The notes under the pieces: generated by a model
Told to the model about the DNA's origin: nothing
Seen by the model: the letters and a program-made list of their open reading frames with translations, nothing else
The model's database searches: none
Assembly (NCBI GenBank): GCA_048939465.1
Contig: JBHLPL010000013.1
Coordinates: forward strand, 1 to 26,755
Direction of reading: 5' to 3'
DNA: 26,755 bases
Source of the DNA: Promethearchaeota archaeon
GTDB lineage: Archaea > Asgardarchaeota > Odinarchaeia > Odinarchaeales > JBHLKK01
Program-made: the position numbers and the translations under genes
In this document: one piece after another, positions 2,688-17,588 of the stretch
How positions within the stretch are numbered: the first letter of the stretch is position 1
How the letters are laid out: each line of letters opens with the position of its first letter

Positions 2688-4955
<2,268 letters not shown>

Positions 4956-4975: not shown

Positions 4976-5377
4976 TTAGAGATCCTCCATTATACGTTTC
5001 AAGGATTTGAAATTCTTTTCTACTATCCTAAAAATCTTTTCAAATATGCCTGTCCAGCTCTCAGTCATTGCCTTTACTAGTAGCTCACCGGTATTTGTTA
5101 CTTCATAAATCTTTCTCTCGGGTCCTTTTTCTCCTTCCGGGACTCCTGTTGTTGTTTCTTCTATCCATCCATCCCCTTCCAGTCTTTTTAGCAGAGGATA
5201 TATTGTTCCTGGCTTAATATTGATGAGACCTCTAGACCAATCCAAGAGAATCTTGCACAGCTTTGCACCATACATAGGTTCCTCATTTAGGAGCGTAAGG
5301 ACCCAAAATTCAAGAGTGCCTCTTCGCATTTCCTTTAACCATTTGTCTAATTTCTTCTCTACTAAGTCCGTCGTCAC
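4976..5377 (-). CDS. PadR-family transcriptional regulator
   Basis: RRGTLEFWVLTLL..EPMYG, PGTIYPLLKRLE.DGWI, GPERKIYEVT..G. GTG start with GGTGA RBS. Confidence 0.9.
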   Translation of the reverse strand: MTTDLVEKKLDKWLKEMRRGTLEFWVLTLLNEEPMYGAKLCKILLDWSRGLINIKPGTIYPLLKRLEGDGWIEETTTGVPEGEKGPERKIYEVTNTGELLVKAMTESWTGIFEKIFRIVEKNFKSLKRIMEDL

Positions 5378-8863: not shown

Positions 8864-9244
8864 ATGTCGGAGAACCCAAAGTCCAGTCCCGCGAAATCGA
8901 GAAGAAAGACCAGAGGAGCAGGACCTAGACAGCCAATTCATCAAGAATCAGAATCAATCGAGAAACAACCCGAGCGCGTAGAAGAAAAAACATCCACGGA
9001 AAAATCGGATCAGATAGAGAAGCCAACTCCTGGGGAGGAATCCTCGGAGGAGAGGTTAAATGGTGATGCGCGAATTGGAGAAATCATTGAAACATGTCCT
9101 GAGGCAGAACGTATTTTAGAAAAACATTTTAGGGCGTGCGCAAAATGTCCAGCAATTGCGGCAGAAACCATCAGTTTTCAGGTATCAATTCACGGCGCAG
9201 ATCTCAAATCAGTCCTTGACGAACTTGACAAACTGTGCCGGTAA
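8864..9244 (+). CDS. DUF1858-like CxxC domain protein with long disordered N-terminus
   Basis: C-terminal IGEIIETCPEAERILEKHFRACAKCPAIAAETI...VSIHGADLKSVLDELD fits the DUF1858/ScdA_N-like pattern. About 64 low-complexity charged residues precede it. AGGTGA RBS. Confidence 0.7.
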   Translation: MSENPKSSPAKSRRKTRGAGPRQPIHQESESIEKQPERVEEKTSTEKSDQIEKPTPGEESSEERLNGDARIGEIIETCPEAERILEKHFRACAKCPAIAAETISFQVSIHGADLKSVLDELDKLCR

Positions 9245-9334: not shown

Positions 9335-9349
9335 TATAACAATGTTATA
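9335..9349. promoter_or_regulatory. Perfect palindrome at copA promoter (candidate operator)
   Basis: TATAACA-A-TGTTATA immediately 3' of TTTATTAA (9327-9334). Confidence 0.6.
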
Positions 9350-9411
9350 GTCTGAGTAGTGGTTTAGTTTCTTCTATTCAGATTACTGATTAGACTGAAA
9401 GGTCGGTACTT

Positions 9412-11646
9412 ATGGGAAGAGGTTCGAAGTCATCAGAAAAAGAGAGGAAATCTCTGCAAATTGGGGGTATGCATTGCGCAACATGCGTATTGACTGTAGA
9501 GAAGGCTCTGAAGAAACTGGACGGGGTCTACAATGCTACAGTCAATCTTGCCACTGGAAAGGCGTTGGTAGACTATGATCCGAACAAGGTGTCTGATCCG
9601 AAATTCGAAGAAGCGGTACACGATGCCGGATATGAAGTTGTAACAGAGCCAGACAGTGAACAAGTCTCAAGAAGGAAAGAAGTTCGAATGCAAAAACGAC
9701 TCTTCATTTTCAGTCTCGTTTTGAGCATACCTATAGTCCTATACAGCTACAGCGATATTCTACCGTTCATTCTCCCCGAGATTATTCCACGGGCAATACT
9801 GTTGTTTATCTTGACCACACCCGTTCAATTCATAGGTGGATATCAATTCTACAAGGGAGCATATTCTGCACTGATGAACAGAACTGCAAACATGGATGTA
9901 TTGGTTGTCCTAGGCACTTCAGCTGCCTATTTTTACAGCATTGCTGCCACTTTCTTTATTAAAGGACCTTTGTTTTACGAAACATCAGCTTTGTTAATAC
10001 TATTCATTACACTTGGAAGGATGCTTGAAACAATCACAAAGGGCAAGACTTCTGAGGCTATTAGAAGCCTAATGAGACTGAGACCGAAAACTGCAAAGAT
10101 CATAAAAAACGGCGAGGAAACGACTGTTTTGATAGATGATGTTCAAGTTAAGGACATACTTGTTGTCAGACCCGGAGAAAGAATCCCAGTCGATGGTGAA
10201 GTTTTGGACGGGCATTCATCTGTAGATGAGTCCATGATAACCGGGGAATCTATGCCTGTCGAAAAGAAAAAGGGGGACACAGTAATAGGAGCAACGTTGA
10301 ATACTTCTGGTATGTTAAAAATCAACGCAACCAAAGTCGGGAAAGATACCTTGCTAGCCCAGATAATAAAACTAGTTGAGGAAACCCAGGCATCAAAACC
10401 CCCGATACAAAGATTTGCAGATAGAGTTGCGGCTCGTTTTGTGCCTGCAGTCGTAGTCTCGGCCCTAATTACATTCCTTACTTGGACACTAATCGGCATG
10501 GAGTTTTTGTTCTCTTTCATAGTCACGATTTCAGTTCTAGTTATTGCTTGCCCGTGCGCCTTGGGTCTGGCCACACCTGCAGCAGTAACGGTCGGCACAG
10601 GAAAAGGGGCAGAAAATGGGATACTAATAAAAAGCGGAGAAGCTTTGGAAACTGCCCGCAATCTTACTACCATTGTGTTTGATAAGACGGGTACTCTAAC
10701 TGTTGGCAAACCTCACGTTACCGATATAGTTCCGATTGAGGATGGTGCAACAAATTCAACCGAGAGAGATGTGATAAGAACTGCCGCAATTTGCGAAAAA
10801 TTCTCAAATCATCCTTTATCTCTTGCTATAACGGAAAAGGCAAAAGAGATGGGAATAGATATTCCGGATCCGTCGGAATTCAACTATGTTGCCGGACAGG
10901 GGAACGTAGCAAGATTTGACGATAGAAAGATACTGAGCGGTAATAAGAAACTGCTTGCCGGTAGCAAAATAGTCCTTAACGGAGAAGACGAGAGGCTTAT
11001 GAAAAAGCTAGAATCCCAAGGCAAAACGGTAACACTGGTTGCGGAAAACAGCCTGCTAATAGGATTAGTAGCTATGGCAGACACTCTGAAGGAGCATGCG
11101 AAAGACGCAGTGGGTTCACTCAAGAAAATGGGATTAAAAGCAGCTATATTGACAGGAGATAACGAGAGAACAGGCAAAGCTATCGCCCAAGAACTTGGGA
11201 TCGATCATGTTTTGGCTGAAATTCGTCCAGAGGACAAAGCAAAGGAGATAAGAAAGCTGCAAGATATGGGAGAGACGGTAGCCATGGTTGGAGATGGAAT
11301 AAATGATGCCCCGGCCTTAGCCCAAGCCGACATTGGCATCGCCATAGGAAGTGGAACTGATGTCGCCATTGAAACCGGGGAAATAGTGTTAATCAAAGGG
11401 GATCTGAGAGACGTGCCAGCAGCCATTCTTTTAAGCAAGCAGACTGTAAGAAAAGTCAAGCAAAACCTGTTCTGGGCGCTGGCTTACAACGTAGCTGCCA
11501 TACCGATAGCAGCTGGTCTTTTGTTCCCCATAATCGGGCTTCTCCTAAGACCAGAAATAGCTGCATTTGCTATGTCCATGAGTTCGGTGACCGTTGTTAC
11601 AAACTCCCTGTTGCTAAAAAGATATAATCCGAAAATACAAGACTGA
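9412..11646 (+). CDS. copA: Cu(I)-translocating P1B-1 ATPase
   Basis: HMA domain GMHCATC, TGES, TM motif [17 protein letters not shown] phosphorylation site, [12 protein letters not shown] and MSMSS Cu(I) ligands. Confidence 0.96.
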
Positions 11647-11651
11647 AATCA

Positions 11652-12821
11652 TCAGAATTCTATTATCTCAGCGGTTTCAATCGAATCACTGATCAGACTT
11701 CCCAATTCAGCTTCCCTCTCGACATCAAGGATATCGTTCAGATTAGCCGATGTAAGAGGATATTTGGGAACTGCTGTGCAACACGAAGCAGGTCGAATTG
11801 ACAGCTCATAAGTATTTATCCTTTTTGCAATCTGTTCAATCTCAATCTTGTCTAGTCCTATTAAGGGCCGGAAAATGGGTAGTTTCATGCCATAAGTTTC
11901 GACAAAAAGGTTTCTCAGGGTTTGACTTGCCTTCTGACCTAGGCTTTCTCCTGTGACAATGGCCTCGGCTCCCTCTTTTTCTGCTATTTGCTCAGCCAGA
12001 CGGTACATTGACCTACGGCATAGAATGCACAGCATTTTTTGAGGGGCTCTTTCTGTGAATGCCTTCAATATTCTTCCTTGAGGAACAATATACATCCTGA
12101 TTCTATATCCCGAAGCGTACTCCTTTAGTTTATTCGCTACACTGATTACTCTTTTCTTTGGCGACTCATCAACATACGGATGACTGTGGAAAAAAACATA
12201 TACTGGAAGACTGCCTCGTTTCATAATAAGATAGCTTGCAACGGGCGAATCTATGCCACCGGAGAGCATGCAGACAACTTTTCCTTGGGTATTCAGGGGA
12301 AGACCGCGAAGGCCAGCCATTATTTCATGATAAATATAAGCCTTATCTTCTCTAATTTCAGCGTAAATGGTATTTTCCGGTTTGTTGAGATTCACAACTA
12401 TCTCGTGATCAAATGCTTTCAGAATAGCTTCGCCTGCAACCGTCTCCACATCTTTGCTTGTGTATGGATGGGCTCCTGCTCTTCTGGCTCTTACTGCAAA
12501 AGTCTGGCCAGGGACGAATATGGTCTTGGCGTACTCAACAAGCCCCCTAACTACTTCACTGAGCCCGACACTGGAAAGCACGGCAGCAGGAGAGAAAGAC
12601 ATTATGCCAAAAATCTTTCCGAGTGAAGAGCAGAGCCTACCAGCGCTTGGAGAGTCTACAAATATCCGTCCTCTTTCTTTTCGAATACTGTAAGCATTCT
12701 TTTTTTCCTTTAGGGCCGCACGGATACCCTTGATCAGAATCTTTTCAAATCTCTTGCGAGTACTGTCAGATTTTATTCCCATTTCCCCGTATCTTATGAT
12801 TATTGTATCATAAGCGGACAT
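11652..12821 (-). CDS. thiI: tRNA 4-thiouridine synthase ThiI (THUMP + PP-loop, no rhodanese domain)
   Basis: IIRYGEMGIKS, TFAVRARR, LSGGIDSPVA, CILCRR, TGESLGQKASQTL.NL, RPLIGLDK.EI, ASCC. Confidence 0.94.
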   Translation of the reverse strand: MSAYDTIIIRYGEMGIKSDSTRKRFEKILIKGIRAALKEKKNAYSIRKERGRIFVDSPSAGRLCSSLGKIFGIMSFSPAAVLSSVGLSEVVRGLVEYAKTIFVPGQTFAVRARRAGAHPYTSKDVETVAGEAILKAFDHEIVVNLNKPENTIYAEIREDKAYIYHEIMAGLRGLPLNTQGKVVCMLSGGIDSPVASYLIMKRGSLPVYVFFHSHPYVDESPKKRVISVANKLKEYASGYRIRMYIVPQGRILKAFTERAPQKMLCILCRRSMYRLAEQIAEKEGAEAIVTGESLGQKASQTLRNLFVETYGMKLPIFRPLIGLDKIEIEQIAKRINTYELSIRPASCCTAVPKYPLTSANLNDILDVEREAELGSLISDSIETAEIIEF

Positions 12822-12919
12822 TCTGCTTTCCTCATATCAAGAGTCTCTTTTTCTACTTTAACCAGTAGTAGATGAGGCTTGCTACCTAAAAAGCTTAAAT
12901 ATAGCAACACATTAAGAAT

Positions 12920-12934
12920 TATAGCAGTGTTATA
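12920..12934. promoter_or_regulatory. Near-palindrome at HTH regulator promoter (candidate operator)
   Basis: TATAGCA-G-TGTTATA, 13/15 identical to the copA palindrome. Lies over the expected start of transcription downstream of CTTAAATA 12894-12901. Extra half-site TATAGCA at 12900-12906. Confidence 0.55.
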
Positions 12935-13311: not shown

Positions 13312-15300
13312 TCAGCTGTCTTTCCCATAAATGATCATGCCAGTCTTATTATCGGGAGCGAGACCTGCTTTCCTTCGTAGCTCCTCTTTGAATGTTCTGG
13401 AACTAAGTACGGTTATGAATTTCTTTATCCAAGGTTTTTCCAGACTATTATTAAGGATGACAAAATCAAACTTCTCCTGAGCTATCGGAATGAAGTCAAG
13501 ATCATGACTCCTGGCTGCGGCTTCTGTGCCTAGACCTGTATCGACTTTGTTATGCAGGACCGCAGCAGCAACAGCAGAATGGGTTTTTGCTTCCGTTTCA
13601 AAACCTTTAATTCTTTCGGATATCGGTTTGAAGGTTTGATGATTACCTTTGCGAAGTCCGTTGAGCGCCTTCTCCAGTAAAAGTCTCGTACCAGAACCTT
13701 GAATTCTATTGATGAAAACCACATCATCACGCAGTAAATCATCAAGACCGCGAATTTGCTTGGGATTTCCCTTTGGTACAATCAATCCTTGTTTTCGGTT
13801 ATATCCACGAACGATGACAACTTTGCCTGTTAATCCATATTTGCCAACAAAAGGTATATTATACTCTCCGGTTTCAGCATCAAGGAGGTGAATTCCAGCA
13901 ATATCAGCTTCCTCTCTCTTAAGGGCCCTTAATCCTCCAATCGATCCTGCATTTATTGTTTTTGCATGGAATCCGCCGTGACGATCAAACAGCAGAGAGA
14001 GAATCAAATCAACGCCTGCACAATGACTGCCAATAATAATAATGTCAGCCGGTTTCAGCTCATCTCCAAACAGACTGACCTCAACTGGGTCTTGTGGGAA
14101 GAGGAGTTCTTTATTCTCCGGTATTTGTATGAAGCCGTCAGCTTCTGCTAGCGTAGTGATAGCGCCGGATCCTTTCAGCGAAGGATAAACCACATATCCC
14201 TCCCTTGTCTCAACGATATTTACGGGTAGAAATTGCCTTCTTCCCGAAACGGAGTGGATTTTTGTGGCGAGTCTGGCAGATATCTTAGCTGTTGGCTTAT
14301 CGATAATTCCCGCAAGACTGTGTATTGCCGGACGGACAAATATATTAAACAGGGTTAAGGCAGAGGTGGGGTATCCCGGAAGCCCAAAAACAGGTTTGTC
14401 ATCCACAACTCCGATAATGGTGGGCTTACCCGGTTTCACAGCAATCCCATGAATGAGAATTCCCGGTTTTCCAAGTTCATCGATTATATTGTATAACATA
14501 TCCCCCATACCGGCGGATGTACTACCGCTTGTTAGAACCATATCTGCCTTGGCAAGTCCTTGACCAAGCTTCTCCTTCAATTCTTCTTCGTTATCTCGGC
14601 TTATTCCCAGAAGAATTGGAAGGCCGCCACTTTCCTCCACGGCTGCAGCCATTGAATATGAATTAACATCGAATACTTTTCCGTAATCAAGAGATTCACC
14701 AGGCGGCATGATTTCGCTGCCTGTAGAGAGAATGGCCACTCTTGGCTTGCGAAAAACCTCAACTTCGGTCATTCCCACCGCCGCCAAAACACCAATTTCT
14801 CTAGAAGTTAAGACTTGTCCTTTCCTTAGAATTAGTTCTCCCGTCATGATATCGGAGCCTGCTGCCGTTATGTTCTCCATAGGCCGAATCGACTTGTAGA
14901 TGTCTACAGTCCCCTGAGTCTGAGATGTGTATTCAACCATCACTACAGCAGTGGCACCTTTAGGCAGTGGTGCACCAGTTGAAATCTCGAAGGCCTCACC
15001 ACTTCTAATCTCGGATTCAGGCACTTCTCCTGCTTCCACCCTGCCTACAACTTTGAGCCTCCTTGGCTCTGTTTCTTCGGCTCCAAATGAATCATCAGCC
15101 AAAATAGCGAATCCGTCCATACTAGCCCGGTCAAATCCCGGAACATCGACCGATGAGACAATATTCTCCGCAAGAACCCTCTTGAACGCGGCAACTAAGG
15201 ATACCCTCTCAACGGTAGGAACCAGTCTGAGGTGTTTCTTCAATATCTTGCGAGCTTGCTCCAAAGTAACTAGGTCCTTGAAAATCTTTCGTTTCTTCAA
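13312..15300 (-). CDS. moeA: Molybdopterin molybdotransferase MoeA fused to C-terminal periplasmic-binding-protein-like domain
   Basis: PGFDRASMDGFA, ISTGAPLP.GA.AVVMVE, STGSEI, VKPGKP, GLPGYP, then GSHC, SIGGL.AL....ADIAGIHL, INRIQGSGTR, THSAVA..V. TTG start overlaps the upstream stop by 4 nt. Confidence 0.93.
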   Translation of the reverse strand: MKKRKIFKDLVTLEQARKILKKHLRLVPTVERVSLVAAFKRVLAENIVSSVDVPGFDRASMDGFAILADDSFGAEETEPRRLKVVGRVEAGEVPESEIRSGEAFEISTGAPLPKGATAVVMVEYTSQTQGTVDIYKSIRPMENITAAGSDIMTGELILRKGQVLTSREIGVLAAVGMTEVEVFRKPRVAILSTGSEIMPPGESLDYGKVFDVNSYSMAAAVEESGGLPILLGISRDNEEELKEKLGQGLAKADMVLTSGSTSAGMGDMLYNIIDELGKPGILIHGIAVKPGKPTIIGVVDDKPVFGLPGYPTSALTLFNIFVRPAIHSLAGIIDKPTAKISARLATKIHSVSGRRQFLPVNIVETREGYVVYPSLKGSGAITTLAEADGFIQIPENKELLFPQDPVEVSLFGDELKPADIIIIGSHCAGVDLILSLLFDRHGGFHAKTINAGSIGGLRALKREEADIAGIHLLDAETGEYNIPFVGKYGLTGKVVIVRGYNRKQGLIVPKGNPKQIRGLDDLLRDDVVFINRIQGSGTRLLLEKALNGLRKGNHQTFKPISERIKGFETEAKTHSAVAAAVLHNKVDTGLGTEAAARSHDLDFIPIAQEKFDFVILNNSLEKPWIKKFITVLSSRTFKEELRRKAGLAPDNKTGMIIYGKDS

Positions 15301-16568
15301 ATGCCCTCACCTTCGATTTGCTCTCGAATCAGAAGAACCTCCACCTCTTCGCCTTCTTCAATTCCTTCCTTATTCTCAGGTATGATGACAATGCCGTTTG
15401 CCTTCACCATGCTTGAGAGTATGGCCGACCCAGCCACTCTAACGGGTTCAACAAGATATTCTCCCTTCACACGTTTAACAAGGACTCTAGCAAAGTCTCG
15501 TCTACCGACGTTCGAGGGTATGCGTCTGGTGATCCTCCCTTTAACTAGCGGTAATATCTGGCCGGGAGTCTGACCAGATATTCTTTGAATTACTTTGTGA
15601 CCAAAGACATATACGCTGATCATTGCAGCTACGGGATTTCCAGGAACCAGGATTACCGGTTTATTCTTGACTAGTGCCAGCCCAGTAGGTTTGCCAGGTC
15701 GCATAGATATGCCGTGAACGACTAATTCCCCCACGGAGGCTACTACTTCGGGAGCCAAATCTTTTTTGCCCACTGATGTTCCACCCATAAGAATTACCAT
15801 ATCCGCTTTGATTGTTCCTTCCAGCAGTTTGGCTTTTATTTTGACGGCGTCATCTTGAACGATTCCTAAATTCACCGGAACCCCGAGCATTTCCCTTACG
15901 AGGGCTGAAATCGTGGGCGCGTTTGTGTTAACGATCTTTCCAGGAGAAGGGACATCTTCTGGTTCTATCAATTCATCCCCTATGGAGACTATTGCAATAC
16001 GAGGCTTTCTGAAAACCTTGATCGAATGGACGTTGATAGCATACAGTATACCTATGTCTTGAGGTTTTAGTATTGTACCTCGCTTCAAAACCAAATGGCC
16101 TTTTCGAACATCTTCTCCTGCCAACGAAACGTTCTCTTTTGGTACTGACGGTCTATAAATCTCAATATTGGTTTCATCCAATTTGTTTATATATTCAAGC
16201 ATAACTACTGCATCCGCCCCAGGAGGCAACTGTCCTCCGGTCATTATCAGTATGGCTTGGTTCTCTTTTACACCAGTGTCAGGGATTTGTCCCGCAGTTA
16301 TTGAGTCGACGACGGAGAAGGTTAGAGGGTTGGTCTCCGATGCTCCAAACGTATCTTTTGCTCTAACGGCGTAACCATCCATAGCAGATCTATTGAAACT
16401 AGGAACATCTGACGCTGATTGAATATCCTCAGCTAGGATACGATTTAGTCCATCAATTGCTTTGATTTCTTCAGTTTCACAGAGGAACTCAATTAAGGGA
16501 AGAAAGGTTTCTAGAGCGATCTTGACATCCGTTGTTTTGTCAAAACCCCTCATCTGAACGTCCTTCAT
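15297..16568 (-). CDS. moeA: Molybdopterin molybdotransferase MoeA
   Basis: PSFNRSAMDGYA, IMTGGQLP.GADAVVMLE, SIGDEL, MRPGKP, PGNPVAA, GSAILSSM..ANG. ATG at 16568 after AGGAG. The track start at 16727 is over-extended. Confidence 0.93.
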   Translation of the reverse strand: MKDVQMRGFDKTTDVKIALETFLPLIEFLCETEEIKAIDGLNRILAEDIQSASDVPSFNRSAMDGYAVRAKDTFGASETNPLTFSVVDSITAGQIPDTGVKENQAILIMTGGQLPPGADAVVMLEYINKLDETNIEIYRPSVPKENVSLAGEDVRKGHLVLKRGTILKPQDIGILYAINVHSIKVFRKPRIAIVSIGDELIEPEDVPSPGKIVNTNAPTISALVREMLGVPVNLGIVQDDAVKIKAKLLEGTIKADMVILMGGTSVGKKDLAPEVVASVGELVVHGISMRPGKPTGLALVKNKPVILVPGNPVAAMISVYVFGHKVIQRISGQTPGQILPLVKGRITRRIPSNVGRRDFARVLVKRVKGEYLVEPVRVAGSAILSSMVKANGIVIIPENKEGIEEGEEVEVLLIREQIEGEGI

Positions 16569-16630
16569 ATGGCATCTCCTACCAAAGATAATAAATATTC
16601 GAAGAAGGAGAATAAAAATCTTAATTCGAA

Positions 16631-16649
16631 TTCCTGAGACACTCAGGAA
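16631..16649. promoter_or_regulatory. Perfect 8-bp inverted repeat between divergent moeA and speB
   Basis: TTCCTGAG-ACA-CTCAGGAA. Confidence 0.5.
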
Positions 16650-16697
16650 GTCCTTAAGAACACAATATCTGTATCTAAAACTAGGAGAGGAGCATTC

Positions 16698-17588
16698 ATG
16701 GATAGAAGTTTCTACACATCGCCTCACAACACGTTCATGGGAAGTTCAAGCTCATTTGATAAGGCCCGATATGTGGTGATCGGAGTTCCATTTGACGGAA
16801 CAAGTACCTACAGACCCGGTTCACGATTTGGTCCAAGAGCAGTAAGAGAAGCCTCCAATAACATCGAAGGATTTAGCTTACGAGCCAAGAGAGGATTGGC
16901 CAGCTATGAAATACACGATATGGGCGATGTCGACGTAATCCATGGCAACACGAAAGAAACACTTGAGCGTGTTGAGAAGGTTGTCAAGGAAGTTCTAGAA
17001 GCATGCAAAACACCAATATTGATTGGTGGAGAGCATACTCTGAGCTACGGAGTAATGAAGGCATTAAGGGATAATGTTGCATTGATTCATTTTGATGCAC
17101 ACATGGATTTTAAGGACTCTTACATGGGTCAAAAGCTCTCCCATTCAACAGTCATGCGAAGAATATCCGAAATAGCAGGTATTGGAGCGATTATTCAGCT
17201 TGGAATTAGAAGTGGCTCCAAGGAAGAATATGAATTTGCCAGAGGAAAGATGATTCAATATTCCTCTCATGATATTCAAGAAAAAGGCGTTCATAATGTA
17301 ATCAATTTAGTAAAGAGAACGTTAAAAGATTTTGACGGAGCCTACTTGACAATTGACATGGATGTTCTGGATCCTGCTTATGCCCCAGGTGTCGGGAATC
17401 CAGAGCCCGGAGGATTGAGCTTCTCCACTTTGCTGGAACTTGCCTTGGGTATCTCTGAGACCTCCAAAAGAGTGGTTGGCCTAGATGTTGTTGAGATTGC
17501 TCCAGAATATGATAATGGAGTTACTGCGGTTTGCGCCGCAAAGATAATCTTTGAGCTTCTCTGTACGCTATCTCTGAGATCAAGGTAA
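16698..17588 (+). CDS. speB: Agmatinase (ureohydrolase family)
   Basis: GVPFD.TSTYRPGSRFGP, GGEHTLS, HFDAHMD, TIDMDVLDP..APGVG.PEPGG, DVVE..P.YD. Confidence 0.92.
   Translation: MDRSFYTSPHNTFMGSSSSFDKARYVVIGVPFDGTSTYRPGSRFGPRAVREASNNIEGFSLRAKRGLASYEIHDMGDVDVIHGNTKETLERVEKVVKEVLEACKTPILIGGEHTLSYGVMKALRDNVALIHFDAHMDFKDSYMGQKLSHSTVMRRISEIAGIGAIIQLGIRSGSKEEYEFARGKMIQYSSHDIQEKGVHNVINLVKRTLKDFDGAYLTIDMDVLDPAYAPGVGNPEPGGLSFSTLLELALGISETSKRVVGLDVVEIAPEYDNGVTAVCAAKIIFELLCTLSLRSR

Follow-up and report, generated by a model that had tools for sequence, protein, structure and literature searches.

A family of small three-cysteine helix-turn-helix proteins as candidate regulators of a sulfur, cysteine and Fe-S regulon that takes in copper export in Asgard archaea

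Which genes are marked by a palindrome that stands before both a copper pump gene and a small regulator gene in an Asgard archaeon, and which protein is likely to read it? The stretch of DNA analyzed here (the window, 26,755 nucleotides (nt) at its full length) comes from a Promethearchaeota archaeon of the order Odinarchaeales (assembly GCA_048939465.1, contig JBHLPL010000013.1) and carries copA, thiI and, divergent from thiI, a gene for a helix-turn-helix (HTH) protein of 112 amino acids (aa), P0001, with three conserved cysteines. The original prediction, made from the letters of the window, had proposed that two 15-nt palindromes, one at the copA promoter and one at the regulator promoter, define a new copper regulon controlled by an autoregulated metal or sulfur sensor with Cys ligands. 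We found that the operator marks a regulon of sulfur-trafficking, cysteine and iron-sulfur (Fe-S) genes, to which copper export and stress genes are attached, and that by sequence a family of small HTH proteins with three cysteines (Cys3 HTH proteins) is a clear candidate for its binder. It is probable that dimers of this family bind TATAAC-N3-GTTATA, repress the sulfur, Fe-S and cysteine regulon including copA, and report sulfur or Fe-S status. The predicted operator, regulator and autoregulation hold, and the dedicated copper regulon does not.

Two palindromes and the genes downstream of them

Both 15-mers are present where they had been placed (Table 1), and 13 of their 14 arm positions are identical. 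The copA site directly follows an inferred TATA box, in agreement with the prediction. In promoter alignments with three related genomes, whose regulators are 74-75% identical to the window protein, both sites stand out as invariant blocks; the copA promoter block AACATTTATTAATATAAC is invariant in four genomes, and the center of the copA site varies among orthologues (AAT, GAT or AAC). Two details of the prediction had to be revised. The palindrome at 12920 was said to overlap the start of the regulator gene; it ends 27 nt 5' of the ATG, and as far as the sequence tells it likely overlaps the transcription start rather than the start codon. The extra half-site TATAGCA can be seen at 12900, but orthologues do not keep it, and what they conserve at about 12900 is limited to a TATA-like core, TTAAATA (alignment A2). 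This half-site (12900-12906) overlaps the TATA-like element CTTAAATAT, which lies 17 nt 5' of the 12920 operator.

Table 1. Features of the window discussed in the text
Feature	Position	Strand	Remarks
Inferred TATA box TTTATTAA	9327..9334	+	Abuts the copA operator; preceded by an A-rich stretch resembling a B recognition element (BRE)
Candidate operator TATAACAATGTTATA, copA promoter	9335..9349	.	Palindrome; kept in orthologous promoters (alignment A1)
copA, P1B-1 Cu(I)-exporting ATPase	9412..11646	+	TIGR01511, 627.7 bits against a cut-off of 397
thiI, tRNA 4-thiouridine sulfurtransferase	11652..12821	-	Divergent from the regulator gene; TIGR00342, 334.9 bits
TATA-like element CTTAAATAT	12894..12902	+	TTAAATA invariant in alignment A2; inferred regulator promoter
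Candidate autoregulatory operator TATAGCAGTGTTATA, thiI/regulator intergenic region	12920..12934	.	One mismatch to the consensus; invariant in orthologues (alignment A2)
Cys3 HTH regulator P0001, 112 aa	12962..13300	+	N-terminal PCE, HTH with TQAAVSQY, C-terminal CxxC

Within the window alone the pair of palindromes is mildly unusual, since two matches occur in 4 of 100 shuffled sequences. The picture is clearer for the whole host assembly, an Asgard metagenome-assembled genome (MAG; 1.96 Mb, 43% GC, 91% complete; G000). The strict pattern of the prediction occurs there four times, every time between genes. Near matches served to redefine the constrained core as TATAAC-N3-GTTATA, of which the 1.96 Mb contain 10 exact copies vs 0.31 expected from base composition (Poisson 1.5e-12), and all 10 are intergenic. 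The reversed pattern has no exact copy in this genome, and permuted or re-spaced patterns have 0-2. Across three genomes of the genus (G000 and its sisters G001 and G002) exact copies number 10, 13, and 13, with none of the reversed pattern. Across the genome the motif is far above chance. A candidate from another genome was rejected as an operator: the 15-mer TATAACGTTGTTATA occupies positions 89-103 of three G009 contigs (C7, C22, and C39), and the same position 89 on three contigs resembles the end of a repeated (mobile) element.

Counting exact copies and those with one or two mismatches, about 20 promoters carry the operator in the host genome. The target genes were annotated with Pfam and NCBIfam models (Aminotran_5, TusA, DrsE_2, Rhodanese, ThiS, FeS_assembly_P, HSP20, FTR1, hexapeptide/SATase and PALP, DUF438-Hemerythrin-PAS, and CopA). 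Exact sites precede copA, a class-V aminotransferase gene (cysteine desulfurase-like), tusA with a DsrE-like gene, a two-domain rhodanese gene, a ThiS/MoaD-like gene, hsp20 (where a weaker site is also present), a gene of unknown function (167 aa), a divergent DUF169/ARMT1-like pair, a DUF3795 region, and a Cys-rich open reading frame (ORF) of 54 aa. Sites with one mismatch lie before the regulator/thiI pair, a DUF59 Fe-S assembly gene, DUF6512 with an MFS transporter gene, the FTR1 iron permease gene, and cysE-cysK (two sites, a paralogue of the regulator then following), and in the gap between cysS and a CoA-transferase gene; one with two mismatches lies 5' of a DUF438-hemerythrin-PAS gene. 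The 54-aa ORF (G000:C52:4855-5019, L001) has seven cysteines, starts 61 nt 3' of its operator and gives a weak desulforedoxin match (PF06397, E 0.005, below cut-off).

Much of this set recurs in relatives. Orthologues in G000, G001, and G002 keep the site at the desulfurase-like gene, tusA-dsrE, cysE, the ThiS-like gene, the rhodanese gene and the DUF438 gene, and likewise at copA and a 172-aa gene of unknown function. In the lineage of Odinarchaeota-titled genomes, sites occur at cysE-cysK, at tusA-dsrE-cysteine desulfurase, at the DUF438 gene and at the regulator gene, and at copA with one mismatch. The Odin-type genomes also have an operator between divergent genes for CDC48 and the DUF438-hemerythrin protein.

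A family of small HTH proteins linked to the operator

P0001 carries LPCE at residues 3-6 and CEIC at residues 92-95, as had been predicted. Homology searches at E<=0.001 returned 1,098 representative homologues, nearly all about 100-130 aa long, and P0001 fits this stand-alone, COG2522-like family in its length, its N-terminal PCE, its TQAAVSQY-like helix and the CxxC in its last helix. In an alignment of 53 members C5, E6, and C92 are invariant and C95 is nearly so; longer members add a CxxH...CxxC module. No Pfam family matches P0001 above its cut-off. The XRE/Cro HTH_3 model (PF01381) scores 19.1 bits against a cut-off of 23, and it reaches 23.5 bits with the paralogue linked to cysK. The predicted model of P0001, with a mean predicted local distance difference test score (pLDDT) of 88.6, consists of an HTH and a helical hairpin. 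Foldseek with this model found nothing in the PDB at E<=0.001, and PDB sequence and profile searches gave generic HTH matches only. With VIA-align, HTH residues 7-54 match DeoR/SorC, sigma region 4 and ParB-type domains, the nearest structure being of the DeoR/SorC type (Z 7.2, root-mean-square deviation 1.6, 47 residues); the C-terminal hairpin has no specific structural match by this method. The prediction of a homodimer from two P0001 copies (alignment A3) scored 0.21 against a mark of 0.42 and is not evidence either way. A literature search on COG2522 yielded nothing relevant on function.

Genes of this family are linked to the operator across archaeal phyla. With alignment A5 we collected 80 family loci from Bathyarchaeia, Aenigmatarchaeota, Korarchaeia, Thermoproteota, Thorarchaeota, and others. 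A site with at most one mismatch lies within 250 nt 5' of the family gene at 21 of them (26%), compared with 0.5% of 1,445 control windows. In the genus of the window the palindrome stands 27-30 nt before the ATG of family genes, in Odin-type genomes TATAGCGGTGTTATA stands 2-4 nt before the regulator ATG, and in G010 a palindrome precedes the cysK-linked member by 15 nt. The TATAGC operator variant of the window is also found before the thiI-linked homologues of G003-G005. On contig C17 of G007, a more distant Asgard genome (L016, L028), an exact operator occupies the gap between the gene for a SufC-like ABC ATPase and that for a family member of 130 aa, and next on this contig comes a gene whose product has a "putative Fe-S cluster" domain (PF04060). 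All three of three distant members taken at random have a site upstream, one of them with N4 spacing. Members with an altered recognition helix (SPAAITQY or TEATISHY) show TTAAC-type half-sites instead, and promoters of members fused to a ThiN domain carry palindromes of the TACAAC/GTTGTA type (for example TACAACGGCGTTGTA). The neighbors of family members at the 80 loci include ThiI (8), NifS (5), ThiS (3), CysK (2), CysS (2), and TusA (1), and the member P0014 has FdhD, NifU_N and TusA as neighbors.

These linkage data also bear on the identity of the binder. It could be argued that another transcription factor binds TATAAC-N3-GTTATA, or that the motif is a special promoter element, the HTH genes being merely members of the regulon; the outer TATA of each arm does overlap TATA-box-like sequence. 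This would not account for a gene-operator linkage that persists across phyla despite otherwise unrelated neighborhoods, or for half-sites that change along with the recognition helix. Furthermore, a dimeric HTH protein would fit the perfect dyad of the motif, no other regulator gene recurs beside the sites, and we regard this explanation as very improbable. The linkage throughout the family points to the Cys-bearing HTH protein, which had been predicted to be an autoregulated regulator, as the best candidate binder.

The host genome encodes two family members, the thiI-linked P0001 and a 38%-identical paralogue that follows cysE-cysK on another contig, and their recognition helices are almost identical. 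We considered dividing the sites between the two, with ACA-N-TGT centers (copA, regulator, and hsp20) on one side and GC-rich centers on the other; this division was rejected because the center of the copA site varies. The copA-thiI-regulator synteny is kept in four genomes of the genus. The divergent thiI/regulator pair is kept in a second Asgard lineage (G003, G004, and G005), which makes thiI a plausible co-target, as the prediction had suggested. Deep branches in a tree of 20 homologues are not resolved, so that the thiI-linked proteins are taken as orthologues because of their synteny and the TATAGC operator variant that they have in common. Family members that are 42-43% identical also occur on contigs titled as bacterial (L145, L161, L169, and L177, from Bipolaricaulia/Bipolaricaulota, Thermotogae, and Pelodictyon MAGs), where gene transfer or binning contamination is possible.

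Copper genes within the regulon

The product of copA shows all the hallmarks of a P1B-1 ATPase: an HMA domain with CxxC, a transmembrane CPC at 380, YN at 692, the MxxSS motif (MSMSS) at 721, and DKTGT. An exact operator is present at copA of G001, and the Odinarchaeota-titled genomes have a site with one mismatch 6 nt before the copA ATG; CopA of the Odin type has a YHS/TRASH-like N-terminus in place of HMA. In G001 and G002 an exact site also lies 30 nt before the gene for a His-rich CopB of the CPH type. A fasciclin-domain gene with two tandem operators lies about 2 kb from these CopB genes (G001:C19:7037-11322 and G002:C43:1988-6409; L022, L019, L066, and L067), and G002 has a second fasciclin copy (L047), also with tandem operators. 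Directly 5' of copA in the window is an ORF of 126 aa (8864-9244, + strand) with a weak match of the redox-disulfide/DUF1858 type (TIGR03980, E 1e-7, below cut-off), and relatives hold a gene of 124-125 aa at the same place.

Does the window then contain a copper sensor? In such a model the thiI-linked protein would bind Cu(I) at its three cysteines, leave the DNA and derepress copA or copB, and the sulfur genes would serve secondary copper repair. The model gains from the synteny of copA, thiI and regulator in the genus, from sites before CopA in two lineages and before CopB in two species, and from three thiolates being a plausible Cu(I) site by comparison with CsoR and CopY. It also gains from the shortage of other candidates. 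As predicted, no CopR, CsoR or CopY gene lies in the window; CsoR (PF02583) and archaeal CopR TRASH (PF08394) genes were not found anywhere in the 91%-complete genome, and the CopY model (PF03965) gave marginal winged-helix matches only in the genome and none in the window. P0001 itself has no Pfam match to the CsoR, CopR TRASH or CopY families. However, in the closed G003 genome more than 1 Mb separates the regulator from copA, CopA adjoins a family member only in the genus of the window among the 80 loci, a Zn/Cd-like SCPC ATPase gene has no operator at its promoter, nor does copA of G007, and the majority of targets are sulfur, cysteine or Fe-S genes. The Cys motifs had been read as ligands of a metal or sulfur sensor; the triad is found throughout the family, including the thiamine-type forms fused to ThiN, and as a trait of the whole family it is no sign of Cu(I) sensing. 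We therefore consider a dedicated copper sensor unlikely. Judged by the positions of its sites, copper export is a genuine but non-exclusive part of the regulon: the claim of a copper regulon stands insofar as copA belongs to it, and fails on the about 20 operator-bearing promoters, most of them for sulfur trafficking, cysteine synthesis or Fe-S assembly.

The candidate sensor site and its likeness to known systems

In most target promoters an A-rich stretch and TTTAWA come immediately before the operator, whose left arm then belongs to the TATA box, and 12-20 nt separate the site from the start codon. The regulator gene, hsp20, and tusA have the operator 17-22 nt 3' of a TATA-like element, where transcription is expected to start. 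With the operator at or beside the TATA box in one layout and across the start site in the other, the bound protein should act as a repressor. In the probable mechanism named at the outset, a dimeric Cys3 HTH protein would sit on the operator and block recruitment of TBP/TFB or of the polymerase, at its own promoter as well. The genes held down in this way would supply and move sulfur (cysteine desulfurase-like protein, TusA, DsrE-like protein, rhodanese, ThiS-like protein, and ThiI), make cysteine (cysE-cysK), serve Fe-S and iron proteins (DUF59, FTR1, the hemerythrin-PAS protein, and the small desulforedoxin-like protein), and protect against damage (Hsp20 and CopA, with CopB in the sister species). 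The signal is most likely the state of the Cys3(+Glu) site, which could report sulfur or Fe-S sufficiency through an Fe-S cluster that it binds or through a thiol/persulfide state; loss of that cluster or thiol state would release the DNA. A cluster would suit three Cys with a carboxylate, as in IscR and NsrR, which are unrelated. Sufficiency of sulfur or Fe-S is favored because of the target genes, and the stand-alone proteins, with an HTH and a hairpin in the predicted model, have no other candidate sensor beyond the Cys triad. Copper would act via the same Cys3 site or via Fe-S damage, which would explain the co-regulated copper pumps. Of the "metal or sulfur sensor" in the original prediction, the sulfur alternative is closer to the evidence and the metal (copper) part less so.

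Several observations count against this mechanism. Some targets have no obvious sulfur link (the fasciclin, ARMT1-like, and DUF6512-MFS genes), and the G007 copA promoter discussed above lacks the operator. A scan of the closed G003 genome with one mismatch allowed was noisy, with 28 matches vs 13 for the control; these matches were dropped as regulon members, and because of such noise the edges of the regulon are uncertain. With recognition helices this similar, either or both paralogues may occupy the sites, including that of copA. Mangrove and sediment metagenome runs carry this DNA, and no RNA runs are listed with it. Finally, the Cys triad is also present in ThiR-like proteins fused to ThiN, which have their own effector domain, so that it may be a structural metal site and not a sensor.

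The last point leads to a different model, in which the three cysteines hold a fixed structural metal (for example Zn) and the signal comes from outside, for instance through a CymR-like dependence on CysK that is broken by O-acetylserine. A paralogue directly 3' of cysK in G000 and G010 would fit such a model, as would the retention of the triad in ThiR-like proteins, whose sensing is via ThiN, and the resemblance of the separate CxxH...CxxC module of longer members to a zinc ribbon. The window protein, however, is linked to thiI rather than to cysK, and the Odinarchaeota-titled genomes have a single detectable family member, which is not beside cysK. Nor does the predicted structure of the 112-aa protein show, outside its HTH and helical hairpin, an obvious pocket for a ligand. 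We judge an outside signal to be improbable.

How does a Cys3 HTH repressor with a sulfur or Fe-S signal compare with known systems? ThiR is reportedly the archaeal thiamine regulator, an HTH fused to a ThiN domain. The HTH had been assigned to the N-terminal type of ThiR, and homologues fused to ThiN indeed match P0001 at E 6e-17 to 2e-6 with 31-40% identity; residues 1-100 align with them, and C5, E6, C92, and C95 are invariant there. Unlike ThiR, P0001 has no match to ThiN (PF10120) and ends 17 residues after the CxxC, and the target set covers sulfur, cysteine, Fe-S, copper, and stress functions, with thiI as its sole thiamine-linked gene. In its logic the system resembles IscR, SufR, NsrR, and CymR-CysK, with a small autoregulated repressor and a palindromic operator over the promoter (both putative here), with three Cys and one non-Cys ligand candidate as in IscR, SufR, and NsrR, and with cysteine desulfurase, Fe-S assembly, and cysteine synthesis genes as targets, as in the IscR/CymR group. 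Three Cys and a Glu are conserved in the Cys3 HTH family; no match of P0001 to Rrf2, the family of IscR, was found by Pfam, PDB profile or fold search. Copper pumps, moreover, are not usual members of the IscR, SufR, NsrR or CymR regulons.

CsoR, CopY, and CopR repress copA, and CstR represses rhodanese, TusA, and DsrE-type sulfurtransferase genes. The Cys3 HTH proteins would be Cys-based sensors of the same general type, and their target set combines copA with CstR-like sulfurtransferase genes, although the family is unrelated to CsoR/CstR, CopY or CopR(TRASH). In Thermococcales, SurR switches DNA binding through a CxxC in response to elemental sulfur; this winged-helix protein is larger, recognizes a site of the GTTn3AAC type and governs a regulon for hydrogenase and sulfur reduction. 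SurR is likewise an archaeal regulator with a CxxC and a sulfur-linked regulon, but no homology to it was detected. Taken together, a functional likeness to IscR, CymR, CstR or CsoR would exist here without relatedness. No characterized archaeal counterpart of IscR, SufR or CymR was found in the literature searched, nor anything usable on an archaeal cysteine/sulfur regulon or on the ThiR operator.

Two further gene groups in the window are without the operator. A gene for MoeA fused to a periplasmic-binding-protein-like domain (13312-15300, - strand) and a second MoeA gene (15297-16727, - strand) converge on the regulator gene, an order conserved in relatives. A PadR-family gene (4976-5377, - strand) lies directly upstream of the CDC48 gene (2688-4928, - strand) in an arrangement conserved in related genomes and reminiscent of heat-shock units of the Phr/HSR1 type in other archaea.

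We conclude that the Cys3 HTH proteins appear, from sequence comparison, to be an uncharacterized regulator family with a well-defined operator and regulon. A wider reading, which we offer tentatively, is that the stand-alone proteins are pan-archaeal master regulators of sulfur trafficking and functional counterparts of IscR, CymR, and CstR, with an operator whose conservation extends from Asgard archaea to Bathyarchaeia, Aenigmatarchaeota, and Korarchaeia, cluster or persulfide sensing at a Cys3-Glu site, copper gating in Asgard archaea and ThiR as a derived fusion. Archaeal control of cysteine synthesis, sulfur relay and Fe-S assembly has been largely unknown so far, and the locus offers a testable regulator family, a precise operator found across phyla and a regulon conserved between species. 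Spectroscopy and mutagenesis have a defined target in the Cys3-Glu site, and because the operator is widely conserved, a cultured archaeon with a family member could serve for genetics. For Asgard archaea, the regulon would tie sulfur supply to copper export in an unexpected way.

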